DNA of 64,000 nt from an uncultured Nitrososphaerota archaeon (lineage in GTDB: Archaea > Thermoproteota > Nitrososphaeria > Nitrososphaerales > Gagatemarchaeaceae), in contig OY969807.1 in assembly GCA_963703285.1 (NCBI GenBank), positions 1,440,001 through 1,504,000 of the forward strand. Direction: 5' to 3'. Positions 2,553 to 63,808 of this stretch are shown here, piece after piece. Below the pieces are notes generated by a model, which searched no databases, was not told where the DNA came from, and saw only the letters and a program-made list of their open reading frames with translations. Positions within the stretch are counted from its first letter, which is position 1. The number at the start of each line of letters is the position of its first letter. The translations under genes were made by a program, and so were the position numbers.

Positions 2553-2704
2553 GGTGTCACTTCCGGCCAGCCCAGAGCGACAGGAAACATTATGGCGCCA
2601 TCGGTGGCGAAGGTGAACAGCTCGGCCGCGCAGGCTAAGGCTCGGTCCGTCGCCAGCAAACTAATGCAGGAGACTCCAAGCCAGCCCGTCTCACTCAACT
2701 CATC

Positions 2705-3472
2705 TCAGGATACCGTGAACTGGATCGTGACGAGCATCGAGTCTCCGGCGGCGACCGAGATGGGAGTCGGGACGGTGAGAATGTCGAATGCAGCGTTACC
2801 TATACCATAGCTCGGGTTCGCCATTTGCGAGAGAGGTCCAGCGCCGGCCTCCAGGACCGCACATGGAGTTTGCGATATGTCGTAGATGCAGTTAGTCGCT
2901 GTGAATGTCGTCGGGCCGAATGTCGCCTGGGTTATCCAGCCACTACAGAGGGGTCCCGTGGGGGCCGGGGTGCCAGCGTTCGGGTCACACCCCAGCGGTG
3001 TGAGGATATTCGTTGCCGCAGCGTTAGCCTGACATCCGGTGACGCTGAAACCGTTTTCCGTTTCCGCTCCGGCGTTCTCTGAACAAGTTCCGCCTATGAA
3101 GGGGTAGCTCGCCGGAGCGAAGACAATCGCGACGCCGTTGATGAACGAGGAACAGGAGCCGTTAGCAGGCGTCGAAGCTGGTCCTACGGGGTCGGTGCTG
3201 CCTCCAACAGACCCCGGTATGCACGCAGCGATTGCGTTGACCGCGATGTTGGTCAAGGGGTCCGGACCGGTCCACGTGGATACCACCTTGCCGTCCGGCG
3301 CCACGACCTTGATCGTCTCCGTGCCGCTGAGGTACAGACCGTCAGTCACTTTTCCGCTTGTATTCGTATTGAGAACGTTCGACAACACGGTCGAACCGAG
3401 AAGGACACCGATAGCTAGACTTCCGACAACGACAAGCGAGACCTTCGCCTTGGACGAAAGCTGCAAATGCAA
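2705..3472 (-). CDS. Secreted or membrane-anchored Cys-rich beta protein, hypothetical
   Basis: N-terminal hydrophobic segment, several Cys, terminal beta-strand GDSMLVTIQFTVS; co-oriented upstream of the 684-aa surface protein. Confidence 0.7.
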   Translation of the reverse strand: MHLQLSSKAKVSLVVVGSLAIGVLLGSTVLSNVLNTNTSGKVTDGLYLSGTETIKVVAPDGKVVSTWTGPDPLTNIAVNAIAACIPGSVGGSTDPVGPASTPANGSCSSFINGVAIVFAPASYPFIGGTCSENAGAETENGFSVTGCQANAAATNILTPLGCDPNAGTPAPTGPLCSGWITQATFGPTTFTATNCIYDISQTPCAVLEAGAGPLSQMANPSYGIGNAAFDILTVPTPISVAAGDSMLVTIQFTVS

Positions 3473-3537
3473 CTAAGCGCATATAACTTATGACATAAAA
3501 GTCTTCTGGAACATGAATACGAATGTTTCCTTTCGCT

Positions 3538-3680
3538 GAGGTGTGTCGAATAACTGGAAGTTTAGTCGCACTTGAATTAAATCCGCCAGAAAGAAAGCGC
3601 AGAATTGACACCCTTGTACCAATCGGTCGACCTGAAATAGTCCGAGTTCACGGTAAACGGCGAGTTATTCGACACACCTC
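3538..3680. mobile_element. MITE-like non-autonomous element, 143 bp
   Basis: Perfect 18-bp terminal inverted repeats gaggtgtgtcgaataact (3538-3555) and agttattcgacacacctc (3663-3680); flanking direct repeat tttcgct (3531-3537, 3681-3687). Confidence 0.85.
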
Positions 3681-5975: not shown

Positions 5976-7199
5976 CTACCTGGTCAGGGGTTTATTCCTC
6001 TTTCTTCCCAGAGGTGAGCGCGCCACCGCAAGAATCACTCCGATCTGGACGAGCACTAGCACTATGTAGGAGACCGGGAGTGATGTGCTAGAAGCTGCGC
6101 TTGTTGTAGTAGACGTAGCAGAGGTGACCTCAGTGGCCGTCGAGGAGGCAACTGAGCCGGAGACCACAAAGACCTTGCTGGAGCCATCACTCACGAACAG
6201 CTCGCCCTTGCCCGAGTCGTAAGCCACGCCATCCGCACCGCCCGTACCGTATACGCCGCCTAGGGTCAGGTTCCCTACGACCGCGTTTGTAGAGTCGGAT
6301 ATCATGTAGACGACGGCGCCTACGCCAGTGGTCGCGAGGACATCTCCGCTGGCAGGGTCGTATGCCATGTTGTAGAGAGCAGGCCCCAAGACCAGGTTAG
6401 CCACCACTGTGTTCGTGGCGTCCGAAATCACTGTGACGTTGTTTGGAGCGGCACCGCCGTAGTTTGTGCCGACAAACATCTCGTCTCTAGCCGCGTCATA
6501 CGCCACGGTTGAAGGCCATTCCCCTACAGTCACGTTCGCAACGACCTTATTGTCGCTGTCAGAGATTACCGATACCGTATTGGACGATATCGGGCAATAA
6601 CCTGTGCAGGAGTCGGAATCGGCTACGTACAACTCTCCCTTGGTTGGATCGTACGCGATACCGTTAGGCCCGCTTCCCCCTGTCCCACTGCTCGCTATCG
6701 TAACGTTTGTGACTACGGTGTTCGTGCTATCCGAGATCACGGACACGGTGTTTGAGCCGTGGTTGGATACGAAGATCTCGCCCTTGGCTGAGTCATACGC
6801 TAGACCGGCAGGCCCGCTCCCCACCTTAACGGTTGCGACTACAGCGTTGGTACTGTCCGAAATCACGGACACGGTGTTTGAGCCGTAGTTTGATGCGAAG
6901 ACCTCGCCCTTGCTCGAATCATACGCCACCTGGACGGGGTCGCTCCCCGCGCTCACGTTCGCCACCACTGAGTTGGTGGCGTCGGATATTACGGCTACAG
7001 AGTTCGCGCCATATGCAGAGTCGGCGACGAAGACCTCGCCCTTCGCTGAATCGTATGCTAGGCCTCCGGGCCCGCCATGGACCGTCACGCTCGCAACCAC
7101 AGTCATGCTCGCTGCACTGGCCAACGGGACCTCAGCCGAAGCAAAGACCAGAAGTAGGAGGACTGTCAGGACGACCGCTGCGCGACCTGCGAAACGCAC
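5976..7199 (-). CDS. YVTN/YncE-type beta-propeller surface protein
   Basis: Signal peptide; repeated P.GLAYDSAKGE.FV.N.GSNTVSVISDSTN blades; Ser/Thr linker; C-terminal TM helix and basic tail. Confidence 0.9.
   Translation of the reverse strand: MRFAGRAAVVLTVLLLLVFASAEVPLASAASMTVVASVTVHGGPGGLAYDSAKGEVFVADSAYGANSVAVISDATNSVVANVSAGSDPVQVAYDSSKGEVFASNYGSNTVSVISDSTNAVVATVKVGSGPAGLAYDSAKGEIFVSNHGSNTVSVISDSTNTVVTNVTIASSGTGGSGPNGIAYDPTKGELYVADSDSCTGYCPISSNTVSVISDSDNKVVANVTVGEWPSTVAYDAARDEMFVGTNYGGAAPNNVTVISDATNTVVANLVLGPALYNMAYDPASGDVLATTGVGAVVYMISDSTNAVVGNLTLGGVYGTGGADGVAYDSGKGELFVSDGSSKVFVVSGSVASSTATEVTSATSTTTSAASSTSLPVSYIVLVLVQIGVILAVARSPLGRKRNKPLTR

Positions 7200-59615: not shown

Positions 59616-59632
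<17 letters not shown>
58985..59632 (+). CDS. Membrane protein of the MoxR gene cluster
   Basis: Two TM helices; lies between the DUF4129 and MoxR genes. Confidence 0.65.
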
Positions 59633-60608
<976 letters not shown>

Positions 60609-60623
60609 GCTGGAGGGGCTGCG

Positions 60624-62000
60624 ATGTCGGAGCGCGCCAGCACCGGGACGAGCTGGGAGGGGCTGAGGACCAGCCCAAGAGGGTACGCGCTCTTCGTCCT
60701 AGGTGTCGTGTCGTTCGTCGTCGGGCTCTTCGCCTCACGGCCGCTGGCGTTCGTCTCCATCCCCCTGATCATGCTGCTCGGATTCACTGCGCTCCGGTCG
60801 CGCGACCCCCGCGTCGACGTCGAGGTTACGAGGACGACCGAGAAGGTCCGGATTCGCCAGGGTGAGTCAACGCGGGTGAGGCTGAGGGTGAGCAACCTCG
60901 CCAGGACGCCCGTCTCGATGCTTCAGGTTGCAGACCACGTTCCCGCGGAGCTTCGGGGAAAGAGAACGATCAGCGGGTTTTCGCTCGCCCTCGGGCCGGA
61001 GGAGACCAGGGACCTGTACTACGAGGTGAGCGCGGGCGCGTTCGGGGTGCACAAGCTCGGTCCGATCCGCCTCTCCGTTCAGGACGCAACCGGGCTCTTC
61101 GAGTCCCAGACAAAGCTGGGTTCCTACACGAAGATGACCGTCTTCCCCGAGAGCACGGAGAGGCTTCGGCACTTCGCCATAAGGCCCCGCAGGACCAAGT
61201 CCTGGCCGGGGGAGATAGTGGCGAGGCGGACGGGCGCGGGCCTGGACTACTACAACATCAGGCAGTTCATGCCGGGTGACTCCGCGAAGCGGATCAACTG
61301 GAGGGCCTCCGCGAGGCACGATGCGGGGCCCGGCGAGTTCCTGGTCAACGAGTACATGGCCGAAGTCGGCGCAGAGGTCCTCATCATCGTCGATGCGGGA
61401 CGGGAGCAGTGGACCCCGCCGGGCAGGGAGTCGATCACAGTCCACTCGGCGAAGGCCGCCATCTCCATAGCCGAGAGGCTCCTGCACGACAGAAACCGTG
61501 TCGGTCTCCTCACCACGGGAGCGAACCCGAGCAGGATAGCGGCCGGCTACGGGAGGCGGCAGTTCGACAGGATTGCGCTCTCCCTCCTGCAGCTGAGGCC
61601 CGGCGCGTACGACGCCCCCGACATCCGCTGGCGGGTGGAGGCGAGCCTCCACACGTTCTTCCCCAACGTCGCCCAGGTGGTCTTCGTCTCCCCCCTCGCT
61701 GACGAGAACGCCATCGCCGCCGCTGCGGACGTCGCCCGTGGAGGCTGGCGCGACCTGATCGTCGTCTCGCCGAACCCGCTGGACTTGGGTGGGCCGGCGT
61801 CCAGGAGCCTCAGGTCCAGGGAGGGGAGGATCGCCAGAAGGCTCACCCAGATGGAGCGGGAGGCGGACATGGAGGGCCTCAGGGAGGCCAACGCGCTGGT
61901 CGTGGACTGGACCACCTCCGCCTCTCTCGAGGAGGTCATGGAGGTCCAGAGGAGGGCGCTGGCGAGGCACGCCGCGGTCTCGGCGAGGAGCGGGCGATAG
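60624..62000 (+). CDS. DUF58 domain protein
   Basis: G.DYYNIRQF.PGD..KRINW.ASAR; follows the MoxR gene. Confidence 0.92.
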   Translation: MSERASTGTSWEGLRTSPRGYALFVLGVVSFVVGLFASRPLAFVSIPLIMLLGFTALRSRDPRVDVEVTRTTEKVRIRQGESTRVRLRVSNLARTPVSMLQVADHVPAELRGKRTISGFSLALGPEETRDLYYEVSAGAFGVHKLGPIRLSVQDATGLFESQTKLGSYTKMTVFPESTERLRHFAIRPRRTKSWPGEIVARRTGAGLDYYNIRQFMPGDSAKRINWRASARHDAGPGEFLVNEYMAEVGAEVLIIVDAGREQWTPPGRESITVHSAKAAISIAERLLHDRNRVGLLTTGANPSRIAAGYGRRQFDRIALSLLQLRPGAYDAPDIRWRVEASLHTFFPNVAQVVFVSPLADENAIAAAADVARGGWRDLIVVSPNPLDLGGPASRSLRSREGRIARRLTQMEREADMEGLREANALVVDWTTSASLEEVMEVQRRALARHAAVSARSGR

Positions 62001-62002
62001 GG

Positions 62003-62569
62003 GTGCAGCCTGTGAGTTCAGGCGGAGGGAGGGGTCCTGCGAGAAGGGTGCTCGCGTTGCCGCCCGAGGTCCTCTCCTTCCTGCTGTTCTGCGCCCTGTC
62101 GCTCTCGGCGATCGCCCTCTTCCCCGGGTCCTATCTCTTCTTCATAGGGCTCGTGGCCGCCGATGGGTTCGCGACGCTCGCGAACGGTGATACCGCCGTC
62201 GCCGTGGTGAGGTCGGCCTTCTTCCTGGCGCTGCTGGACCTGTCTGTCTTGGCCGGCCCGCACAGCATCCTCTTCATCTTCCTGGTGATGATCCTGGCGA
62301 TCGCCGTTCTCGACGTCTCTTTCCTGCTCAGGAGGCTCCGGGGCACCCTGGTCGATGCGTCCGTGATCACGGGCAGGCTGAGGTCCTACGCCTACACCCT
62401 CCTCCCTGCGTTCCTGCTCTCGTACGTGCTGACCTACGCGTACTCGCTCGCGCTCGGGTTCGTCTCGGCGGAACCGGTCGTTCTGCTCGCCGTGTCGTCC
62501 ACCGTCGCGTTGTTGGTTGTGTATGCCGTCTCCCGCCACCTCTCGCCCCGCGTCGCCCCCCGGCGATAG
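62003..62569 (+). CDS. Multi-pass membrane protein
   Basis: About six TM helices; last gene of the MoxR cluster. Confidence 0.7.
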   Translation: MQPVSSGGGRGPARRVLALPPEVLSFLLFCALSLSAIALFPGSYLFFIGLVAADGFATLANGDTAVAVVRSAFFLALLDLSVLAGPHSILFIFLVMILAIAVLDVSFLLRRLRGTLVDASVITGRLRSYAYTLLPAFLLSYVLTYAYSLALGFVSAEPVVLLAVSSTVALLVVYAVSRHLSPRVAPRR

Positions 62570-62590: not shown

Positions 62591-63592
62591 TCACTTGCTG
62601 ATGGTTGCCTTGTTCTCGAAGACTTCCTTGGGAATCAGGCCAAAGACGTCGGGATGCTTCTTCCGCAGGGACTCTTCGGAGGGAGGAAAGAGCCCCGCCC
62701 TGATGGCCCGCCTGACGTTTGATTTCACAAACTGCTTGTACCTTGTGTCGCCGATGTACGAGAGCACGGCGTCCGTCGCCGCGGTCTCGTCCAGCCCCTT
62801 GATCGTAGTGAAGTAGGGGGCGAGGATGAGCCAGATCACCCTGTGCCTCCCGTCGGTTATCGGATGGGCGAGCAGCCTCTGGATGTAGTCGTACTGCTTC
62901 CCTCGCGGGACCGAGGGGCGGGGGATCTGGCTCCTGAACTCGTCGACCAGCGAGTGGATGAACGGCTGGACGGATGCGGTCTTCAGCGCCCTCATGCCCG
63001 AAATCATCAGCCCTTCGACGAGCGCCGCGAAGAAGTCCTGGATGTCGTTCAGGGAGAAGTAGACCAGACCCGAATGCACCCGCATGTTGACCAGGCTCCA
63101 CCTGGGATCGCGGGTGAGCTCGTAGTTCGTTGAGACTGACAGGTACTCCATCACAGGACAGACGAACCTCTGGTCCCTGCCCCTGGTCAGCTGTAGGCCG
63201 ACCGCCTCGCGCAGGATGGAGACCATCTCCTCTGGGCTCTCCTTCAGGAAGAACTTCTTCGCGCGGAACGATTCCGTCTTCGAGAGGGCCGCTCTGAGAA
63301 ACGGCTCGCTCTTGGCTGCTAGCATCGCGACGAAGAAGCTGTAGAACTCGACCAGCTCCTCGCGGGCCGTGAGGTCGTTCGTCCGCCTCCTGTAGGTCTG
63401 GTAGTCGAAGACGCGCACGTTCTGTATGTCTATCTCGGGGTTCTTCAGAGCGAGCCAGATGCGATAGCGTGCCTGGTCCAGTATCGGTTCGTGGAGAGCC
63501 TTGAACACTTCGTCGTTCAGGGGATAGTCGGAGAGGAAGTCCCTCGAGGCCTTCAGGAAGGGATACTTCACGATCTTCTCTTCGATGGACAA
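62591..63592 (-). CDS. Primase large-subunit N-terminal domain fused to a PriX-like domain
   Basis: KYPFL and W.LVN..V..G.VY (PriL N-terminal domain); YDYIQRLLAHPITDGRHRVIWLILAPY...KGL (PriX-like); TTG start preceded by ggaggg. Confidence 0.75.
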   Translation of the reverse strand: MSIEEKIVKYPFLKASRDFLSDYPLNDEVFKALHEPILDQARYRIWLALKNPEIDIQNVRVFDYQTYRRRTNDLTAREELVEFYSFFVAMLAAKSEPFLRAALSKTESFRAKKFFLKESPEEMVSILREAVGLQLTRGRDQRFVCPVMEYLSVSTNYELTRDPRWSLVNMRVHSGLVYFSLNDIQDFFAALVEGLMISGMRALKTASVQPFIHSLVDEFRSQIPRPSVPRGKQYDYIQRLLAHPITDGRHRVIWLILAPYFTTIKGLDETAATDAVLSYIGDTRYKQFVKSNVRRAIRAGLFPPSEESLRKKHPDVFGLIPKEVFENKATISK

Positions 63593-63808
63593 GGCTACCC
63601 TCCGTCCATCCAGAAGATTGATGGCCAGTGATATCCTTTCTCCGGTCATTCGAAGGCCGAATCGTGAACACCTTATTGAGCGTAACCGGTCAGGCACAGA
63701 CCCATGGGCGGGAGAGGCCTGAAAGTGACCGCGCGCCCCCGCCATCCCGGCATGACCGCAGCGGTACCTCGCCAATCTTAATAGTTGGTCAGGCTTCGCT
63801 TGTAGGTC

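Follow-up and report, generated by a model that had tools for sequence, protein, structure and literature searches.

The window analysed here is a stretch of 64,000 nucleotides from an uncultured Nitrososphaerota archaeon of the family Gagatemarchaeaceae (contig OY969807.1 of assembly GCA_963703285.1, positions 1,440,001 to 1,504,000 of the forward strand). Near its right end, a minus-strand open reading frame (ORF) encodes a protein, here called PriL-X, in which the N-terminal domain of the large primase subunit PriL is joined through a short linker to a helical bundle of the PriX family, and no counterpart of the C-terminal [4Fe-4S] domain of canonical PriLs is found. The loop by which Sulfolobus PriX holds the initiating nucleotide is conserved in this protein, the genome holds neither a canonical PriL nor a free PriX, and the fusion is conserved in related genomes. 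In all likelihood, PriL-X is a natural, single non-catalytic large subunit, which would combine a PriS-docking domain with a PriX-type initiation site and do so without a [4Fe-4S] cluster. The sequence evidence also supports the view that PriL-X, lacking the Fe-S domain, is the main and only large primase subunit of the organism.

Domain architecture of PriL-X

By its sequence and its predicted fold, the N-terminal half of PriL-X is a PriL N-terminal domain (residue numbers refer throughout to the 352-amino-acid form). The PriL equivalog models of NCBIfam match it by their first halves only, the best of them being NF002591 (E=1.4e-9), whose positions 9-185 of 351 align with residues 25-218. 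In an AlphaFold model based on 42 family members (mean predicted local distance difference test (pLDDT) 90, predicted template modelling score (pTM) 0.72), residues 24-237 superimpose on PriL of S. solfataricus (1zt2_B; Z 14.8, root-mean-square deviation (rmsd) 2.9 Å over 187 residues; VIA). The further VIA matches of this fold include 5ofn_B (Z 13.2), P. horikoshii 2dla_C (Z 10.9) and human 4bpw_D (Z 10.6), and Foldseek gives TMt values of 0.72-0.74. Within the small subdomain that is predicted to contact PriS, L186 and G194 are invariant across the family alignment.

The C-terminal half belongs to the PriX family. Pfam finds PriX (PF18689) alone on the protein (residues 253-341, E=1.6e-9, 38.3 bits against a cut-off of 25), residues 252-346 of the model superimpose on PriX 4wyh (Z 13.3, rmsd 2.3 Å, 95 of 99 residues; VIA) and the Foldseek TMt is 0.80. 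The engineered chimera 5ofn_B is the solved structure closest to PriL-X by sequence (HMMER, E=3.7e-10), with query residues 165-338 aligned across the junction. A profile of the fused C-terminal domains, compared by hhalign, matches free PriX of Thermoprotei with 99.7% probability (E=5e-27, 100 columns) and the C-terminal domains of 17 canonical PriLs of the class with 0.3%; the domain is therefore a PriX-family module and not a recognisably decayed local Fe-S domain, and this contrast appears to fit replacement of the Fe-S domain better than decay in place. PF04104, the family of the [4Fe-4S] domain, has no match on PriL-X at E up to 10. Only one of the 352 residues is a cysteine (C164, in the N-terminal half), and none follows it.

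A short loop of this module, D266-G-R268-H-R270, aligns with the nucleotide-binding loop of Sulfolobus PriX, with D266, R268, H269 and R270 in the places of D70, R72, K73 and R74. It is invariant in all 42 rows of the alignment as well as in 69 of 69 fused proteins from named genomes. In Sulfolobus PriX, according to the structural study (Holzer 2017, PMC5700102), D70, through a metal ion, and the 72-RKR-74 stretch hold the triphosphate of the initiating nucleotide; the same study reports that D70A, R72A and R74A each abolish priming on poly(dT) and that R72A abolishes ATP binding.

The first-pass annotation had read the gene as a 333-amino-acid frame at 62591-63592, consisting of a PriL N-terminal part that runs into a PriX-like segment and holding too few cysteines for a four-cysteine [4Fe-4S] domain. 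Its assignments of both halves and its cysteine count are borne out by the profile matches and by the comparisons of the predicted structure with PriL and PriX, which it had proposed as a check, and a chance match is excluded for either half. The frame, the 3' end at 62591 (stop codon included; ORF list and translation) and the motifs also stand: KYPFL, WSLVNMRVHSGLVY and YDYIQRLLAHPITDGRHRVIWLILAPY are all present in the translation. The start does not, the TTG at 63592 probably giving too short a protein and the ATG at 63649 being the likelier start, because an 88%-identical homologue (P0003) has 352 amino acids and covers 100% of that form, because the nearest relatives retain similar residues upstream of the TTG, and because AlphaFold sets a beta-hairpin at residues 5-23 (block pLDDT 72-82). 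The features are collected in Table 1.

Table 1. Features of the PriL-X gene, in positions of the window
Feature	Residues	Position	Strand	Basis or remark
PriL-X, whole coding sequence	1-352 + stop	62591..63649	(-)	ATG at 63649; homologue P0003, N-terminal conservation in alignment
In-frame TTG	L20	63590..63592	(-)	start in the 333-amino-acid entry P0002; probably internal
PriL-type N-terminal domain (helical scaffold and small alpha/beta subdomain)	1-241	62927..63649	(-)	NCBIfam, VIA, Foldseek
Predicted PriS-contact subdomain	161-205	63035..63169	(-)	predicted complex interface; holds C164 and WSLVNMRVHSGLVY
Linker, P-rich, lower model confidence	242-249	62903..62926	(-)	no helix (DSSP) between 241 and 250; block pLDDT 72 for 241-250
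PriX-type helical-bundle domain, no Cys	250-341	62627..62902	(-)	PF18689, NF033412, VIA, hhalign
Loop D266-G-R268-H-R270	266-270	62840..62854	(-)	aligned with D70-S-R72-K-R74 of S. solfataricus PriX (HMMER, 5of3_C/4wyh)

At the locus itself, a scan for sigma-70-type promoters and terminators, a signal type unsuited to archaea, gave no site, and AT-rich stretches lie upstream of the ATG. Pfam PF26466, precomputed for three homologues of PriL-X, was absent on rescan of two of those three. The plus-strand neighbours at 59616-62569 are a MoxR-type AAA ATPase (AAA_3, E=4e-62), a DUF58 protein and a hydrophobic ORF of 188 amino acids with no Pfam match; this MoxR-DUF58 module is of an ordinary kind, converges from the opposite strand on the 3' end of the PriL-X gene and is not kept beside the gene in relatives.

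Gene complement and distribution of the fusion

The genome, a single contig of 2,252,123 bases with an estimated completeness of 96%, contains one match to PF18689 and one to the PriL N-terminal model, both of which are the PriL-X gene. PF04104 has no match in it at E<=1, the PF18689 search found no free priX gene, and six canonical PriLs of the class, used as tblastn queries, retrieved only the N-terminal domain of PriL-X (best E 1.5e-6), their C-terminal domains drawing no match. Whether PriL-X is the main large subunit or an alternative one had been left undecided in the first-pass annotation, which had suggested a search for canonical priL and free priX; neither gene was found, and the outcome favours the main and only large subunit.

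PF01896 identifies one PriS in the genome, an ordinary, well-conserved protein of 357 amino acids (G000:C1:1706094-1707167). The modelling of PriL-X with this PriS, likewise suggested earlier, gave a complex score of 0.87, the best of three controls scoring 0.00, with at least 89% contact agreement between runs and a partner pLDDT of at least 83; the score mark that the pair passes is reached by 58 of 80 solved complexes and by 2 of 110 mismatched pairs. The predicted interface pairs PriL-X residues 161-205, among them the invariant L186 and G194, with PriS residues 164-229. As PriS-PriL complexes of this type have been solved (1ZT2, 5OF3), the pass shows likeness to them rather than binding. 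A Gins51-like gene (PF22090, E=4e-15) comes next after priS and overlaps it by 4 bases (priS and the Gins51-like gene being ORFs 1063-2136 and 2133-2702 of L002), and this priS-gins pair (L002 = G000:C1:1705032-1708463) lies about 200 kb from the PriL-X gene.

Across the class, 201 genomes of at least 80% completeness were scanned, the genome of the window (G000) included. PF04104 was found in 187 of them, a tally that includes one unpublished genome (G115) on which no claim rests. The 14 genomes with no PF04104 match are G000 and G147 (both of the organism's own family, f1), all eight of f6, G003 (f8), G055 (f11), G069 (f14) and G141 (f4). Full-length matches to PriL-X, spanning both halves (E<=2e-24), occur in 11 of the 201, namely G000, G147, the eight of f6 and G003; all 11 fall among those 14, and the fusion and PF04104 occur together in none of the 201. 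G147, which consists of one contig and is 100% complete, thus shows the same state as the genome of the window. The other three (G055, G069 and G141, 84-97% complete) have neither PF04104 nor the fusion, G055 having only a Prim-Pol-PriX-type protein (L012); these blanks may reflect assembly gaps or another arrangement.

A pattern scan with one genome per species yielded 73 loci, in 69 of which the N-terminal and PriX domains lie on a single ORF. After the N-terminal domain, 62 of these 69 fused proteins have no cysteine and seven have one, whereas each of 20 canonical PriLs has four to six in its C-terminal region. The titles of the fused loci name Candidatus Gagatemarchaeum stordalenia, Conexivisphaerales, Candidatus Geothermarchaeota and many soil or peat assemblies labelled 'Nitrososphaerales' or 'Thaumarchaeota'. 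At one locus (L070), the fused gene is split into two overlapping ORFs in different frames (6019-6963 and 6528-7025), possibly by a frameshift or a sequencing error within the PriX part. The ammonia oxidation marker amoA (PF12942) was found in all three canonical-PriL genomes tested (families f2, f3 and f4) and in none of three fused-type genomes (G000, G147 and G001), the blank in the genome of the window being interpretable only through the results for the other five genomes, as the control panel held no ammonia oxidiser. The fusion therefore marks sampled lineages that do not oxidise ammonia, namely Gagatemarchaeum-like ones, Conexivisphaerales and Geothermarchaeota.

In a scan of 401 genomes of the phylum, free PriX (ORFs of 140-213 amino acids) was present in 16 of 16 genomes of f31 and 12 of 13 of f25, and as single occurrences in f16 and f70. 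When 1.84 billion cluster representatives were searched by profile, 1377 proteins scored E<=1e-3, of which 479 reached E<=1e-10 and 52 reached E<=1e-30. Among the best 150 representatives, 57 have both domains, 42 have PriX only and 51 have the N-terminal domain only, the last being mostly canonical PriLs with four cysteines after that domain, or fragments. A distant group of fused proteins (306-348 amino acids) carries the labels Candidatus Micrarchaeota (MDE1857282.1), Candidatus Marsarchaeota (MCL5117422.1) and Desulfurococcales archaeon (MDT7889363.1), labels which, belonging to metagenome bins, can be wrong. These distant entries are named 'DNA primase noncatalytic subunit PriX' at NCBI and retain a D-x-R-H-R or D-x-R-K-R loop.

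PriX domains also occur on other proteins of the class. Ammonia-oxidiser genomes with a canonical PriL often encode, in addition, proteins of 283-415 amino acids with a C-terminal PriX domain; this is so in 9 of 16 f4 genomes, one of them with as many as six PriX matches, and in 5 of 127 f2 genomes (L135-L150, L153 and L154, in G107, G143, G181, G032, G166, G103, G142, G178, G139, G121, G154 and G180); L007 (G042) and L012 (G055) are further examples. The PriL N-terminal profile finds no match in the N-termini of these proteins, and two of the ten scanned (L007 and L012) show sub-threshold N-terminal matches to primase, Prim-Pol or PriS families; they are probably single-chain Prim-Pol-PriX proteins, possibly of mobile-element origin. 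On a Candidatus Bathyarchaeota contig (L132, identical to L152), the PriX domain is N-terminal (residues 17-119 of an ORF of 351 amino acids), and in L133 it lies in the middle of a 577-amino-acid ORF; in the parts of these two proteins analysed, no Pfam match was found outside the PriX domain.

History of the fusion and alternative readings

Separate trees of the two domains give different histories for different carriers of the fusion. In the tree of N-terminal domains (45 rows, 214 columns), 24 of the 25 fused proteins cluster together (support 90/85) and the organism's own family is a clade inside this cluster (100/99), and the canonical PriLs of ammonia oxidisers of the same order group with canonical PriLs of other orders (98/96). 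The N-terminal domain of a fused protein from Geothermarchaeota (L127, ORF 2610-3632) nests among canonical PriLs (99/96), and a tree in which all fused N-terminal domains are forced into one clade is rejected (approximately unbiased (AU) test, p=4.7e-6). Forcing the own-family domains together with the canonical ones of the same order gave p=0.005, which is a hint only, the grouping having been picked after the tree. In the tree of PriX domains (60 rows, 114 columns), a branch with support 100/100 parts the free PriX of Thermoprotei from all thaumarchaeal PriX domains, and the main fused group appears again (91/80); the PriX domain of the Geothermarchaeota protein groups with non-PriL proteins, namely Prim-Pol-PriX and the Bathyarchaeota protein (90/83). 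These results indicate that a PriX module was joined to a PriL scaffold at least twice or was exchanged by recombination, and L127 suggests a second independent joining or a recombination event. Conexivisphaerales-like and Gagatemarchaeum-like lineages have the whole of the main fused gene in common, and two scenarios remain: an ancestor with both forms followed by differential loss, or transfer of one form. No ORF within about 6 kb is common to the locus of the window and 16 related loci (blastp E<=1e-8); gene order is therefore silent on replacement in place versus transfer.

The C-terminal domain could also be the lineage's own PriL C-terminal domain, shrunken and with its cysteines lost, its likeness to PriX then stemming from shared ancestry. 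PMC12019639 and PMC6042085 do describe PriX as homologous to, though diverged from, the N-terminal part of the PriL C-terminal domain. When both domain types are aligned jointly, their first helices share columns ('PPC' in canonical, 'Y.Y' in fused proteins), and the N-terminal domain of PriL-X lies within the PriLs of the class. Such decay in place is nevertheless improbable: the profile of the fused domain finds its match in the free PriX of Thermoprotei and next to none in the canonical C-terminal domains of the class, and the DGRHR-type domain is also carried by unrelated Prim-Pol-like proteins of the class. The two halves of the Geothermarchaeota protein, moreover, have their relatives in different places of the two trees, which points to domain exchange and not to gradual decay, and the rejection of a single clade of fused N-terminal domains is contrary to decay in place as well.

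Still less probable is that PriL-X is an accessory or alternative large subunit, belonging to a mobile element or to repair, and that a canonical Fe-S PriL has been missed. The occurrence of PriX-type domains on extra non-PriL proteins beside canonical PriL would suit such a role, as would the lack of a conserved neighbourhood, and PF04104 can miss divergent PriLs. The genome, however, is a single contig of 96% completeness, the one-contig, complete genome of G147 has no PF04104 match either, tblastn with six canonical PriLs retrieved no C-terminal domain, and the mutual exclusion of the fusion and PF04104 holds across all genomes of the class scanned. The N-terminal domain of PriL-X is a true PriL N-terminal domain branching among PriLs of the class, unlike that of the mobile-type Prim-Pol-PriX proteins, and the GC content of the gene is ordinary (0.62 against 0.61 for the genome).

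That the fusion is an artefact of assembly or gene calling, joining two neighbouring genes, is scarcely credible, for although the source assembly is of metagenome type and short-read contigs of the region are fragmented, one uninterrupted frame runs across both domains, the same single-ORF architecture recurs in different named assemblies (69 of 73 loci) and among the best 150 cluster representatives (57), and at the junction, which the first-pass annotation had marked for checking, contigs from other runs of one soil study, perhaps not independent of the assembly, show no differences (X2 record 9, 62883-63033; X3 record 12, 62612-62904).

Proposed mechanism and implications

A natural PriL-X, understood as a single large subunit with a PriX-type initiation site, could support priming in the following manner: The PriL-type N-terminal domain would dock onto the lone PriS encoded elsewhere in the genome, as in the predicted complex. 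On its short linker, the six-helix bundle of PriX type would offer a site for the initiating nucleotide through D266, R268, H269 and R270, by analogy with Sulfolobus PriX, and may in this way let PriS form the first dinucleotide. The same domain may then hold the 5'-triphosphate end of the growing primer, as has been demonstrated for Sulfolobus PriX. A [4Fe-4S] cluster would take no part in priming, because PriL-X has one cysteine and the genome holds no PriL Fe-S domain. From homology, conservation and laboratory precedent, on which this mechanism rests, we infer binding of PriS (suggested by the modelled complex), binding of nucleoside triphosphates, primer initiation and the lack of a metal cluster in the real protein. 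Very probably, PriL-X works like the PriL N-terminal domain together with the PriX part of the Sulfolobus PriSLX primase.

Each of the known systems shares some of these features with PriL-X and differs in others. PriX of Saccharolobus (Sulfolobus) solfataricus (4WYH, 5OF3 chain C, PF18689) has the same bundle fold, family and D-x-R-x-R loop and likewise no Fe-S cysteines; it is, however, a free protein of about 150 amino acids whose N-terminal tail holds it on the Fe-S domain of a separate PriL, whereas PriL-X has a covalent link and no such tail, and its genome has no PriL Fe-S domain to anchor to. PriL-X is thus not a separate third subunit, the PriX domain being the C-terminus of a 352-amino-acid protein. 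Canonical archaeal and eukaryotic PriL (p58) resembles PriL-X in its N-terminal fold, its predicted mode of PriS binding and its presumed role in primer initiation, but carries a C-terminal [4Fe-4S] domain (PF04104), in contrast to PriL-X with its one cysteine; with no Fe-S domain and no free third subunit, PriL-X falls outside both canonical PriL and Sulfolobus PriX. In the NEQ395-type PriS-PriL(CTD) fusions of DPANN archaea and in mobile-element Prim-Pols with PriCT or PriX-like domains (PMC5862659), a helper domain is also covalently attached, but to the catalytic domain, whereas in PriL-X it is attached to the PriL scaffold and PriS is encoded by a separate gene. PriX, PriCT-1/2 and the N-terminal part of the PriL Fe-S domain are considered to be related (Kazlauskas et al. 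2018, PMC5862659).

The closest counterpart is the engineered chimera PriL(1-211)-PriX(42-154) (PDB 5OFN), which has the same domain order and likewise omits the PriL Fe-S domain. The chimera is man-made from two Sulfolobus genes, whereas PriL-X is natural, conserved, found in lineages of soil mesophiles and about 20% identical to the Sulfolobus parts. The chimera is fully active in vitro, with wild-type priming (Holzer 2017, PMC5700102). An S. islandicus strain with only a PriLn-Xc fusion (CHI-deltaX) is viable and grows normally but is more sensitive to methyl methanesulfonate (MMS), nitroquinoline oxide (NQO) and radiation (PMC12019639).

Several observations weigh against reading PriL-X as a complete large subunit of this kind. 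The raised sensitivity of the engineered S. islandicus strain to DNA damage, as given in PMC12019639, suggests by analogy that lacking the PriL C-terminal domain may come at a cost, which natural carriers would somehow have met. All PriL equivalog models of NCBIfam score far below their cut-offs on PriL-X (NF002591 reaches 37.6 bits against a cut-off of 479), and the NCBIfam PriX model NF033412 gives 49.2 bits, just below its cut-off of 50; relatives score higher on it, for instance a Gagatemarchaeum protein with 64.5 bits. Y103 and D140, which buttress R72 and R74 in Sulfolobus PriX, align with the non-identical I299 and H332; the nearby residues Y298 and D334 could act in their stead. Among the sequencing runs listed for the gene there is no RNA run, and its DNA coverage consists of contigs from four runs of one study, possibly the source of the assembly itself. 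PF04104, finally, misses divergent PriL C-terminal domains, as in two of five complete Thermoprotei genomes; the call of absence therefore rests mainly on the C-terminus of PriL-X itself, on tblastn and on the single-contig, 96%-complete assembly. G274 and G320 are complete Thermoprotei genomes with free PriX in which PF04104 finds no Fe-S domain at E<=0.001.

The published range of PriX has been drawn in various ways: as 'specific to Sulfolobales' (PMC9258230), as 'Sulfolobus-specific' (PMC12680538, in a figure legend), as present 'in some crenarchaea' (PMC12770985) or in 'several orders of Crenarchaeota' (PMC10250227), and as of 'restricted phyletic distribution' (PMC6042085). The PriX and primase literature covered, partly in excerpt, without supplements and short of the 2015 PriX discovery paper, mentions the engineered fusion and no natural PriL-PriX fusion. 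The distribution of the natural fusion corrects the statement that PriX is specific to Sulfolobales or restricted, and database entries of 306-352 amino acids that are named 'PriX' would be complete large subunits.

On a broader scale, and by a narrow balance of the evidence in its favour, Fe-S-free replicative primases may recur in free-living archaea. A PriX cassette shared with mobile-element Prim-Pols would then have replaced the PriL Fe-S domain at least twice; the fusion would be the only form of the large subunit in the sampled non-ammonia-oxidising Nitrososphaeria, and probably also in Marsarchaeota, Micrarchaeota and some Desulfurococcales, and such fusions may have, in the free PriX of Sulfolobales, a relative that split off. 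The role of the primase [4Fe-4S] cluster is disputed, having been viewed as a redox switch, as a structural element or as a part of repair, and the question is described as unresolved (PMC10250227); the case for its dispensability rests, in PMC5700102 and PMC12019639, on one engineered Sulfolobus chimera. Soil, peat and hot-spring lineages that have only a PriL N-terminal domain fused to PriX would be natural knock-outs of the cluster. They bear on how priming proceeds without it, on primer length under a tethered 'caliper' and on what may substitute for the role of the Sulfolobus PriL Fe-S domain in double-strand-break repair. If Fe-S-free primases do recur in this manner, the cluster would be dispensable for cellular DNA replication in nature, not only in vitro.

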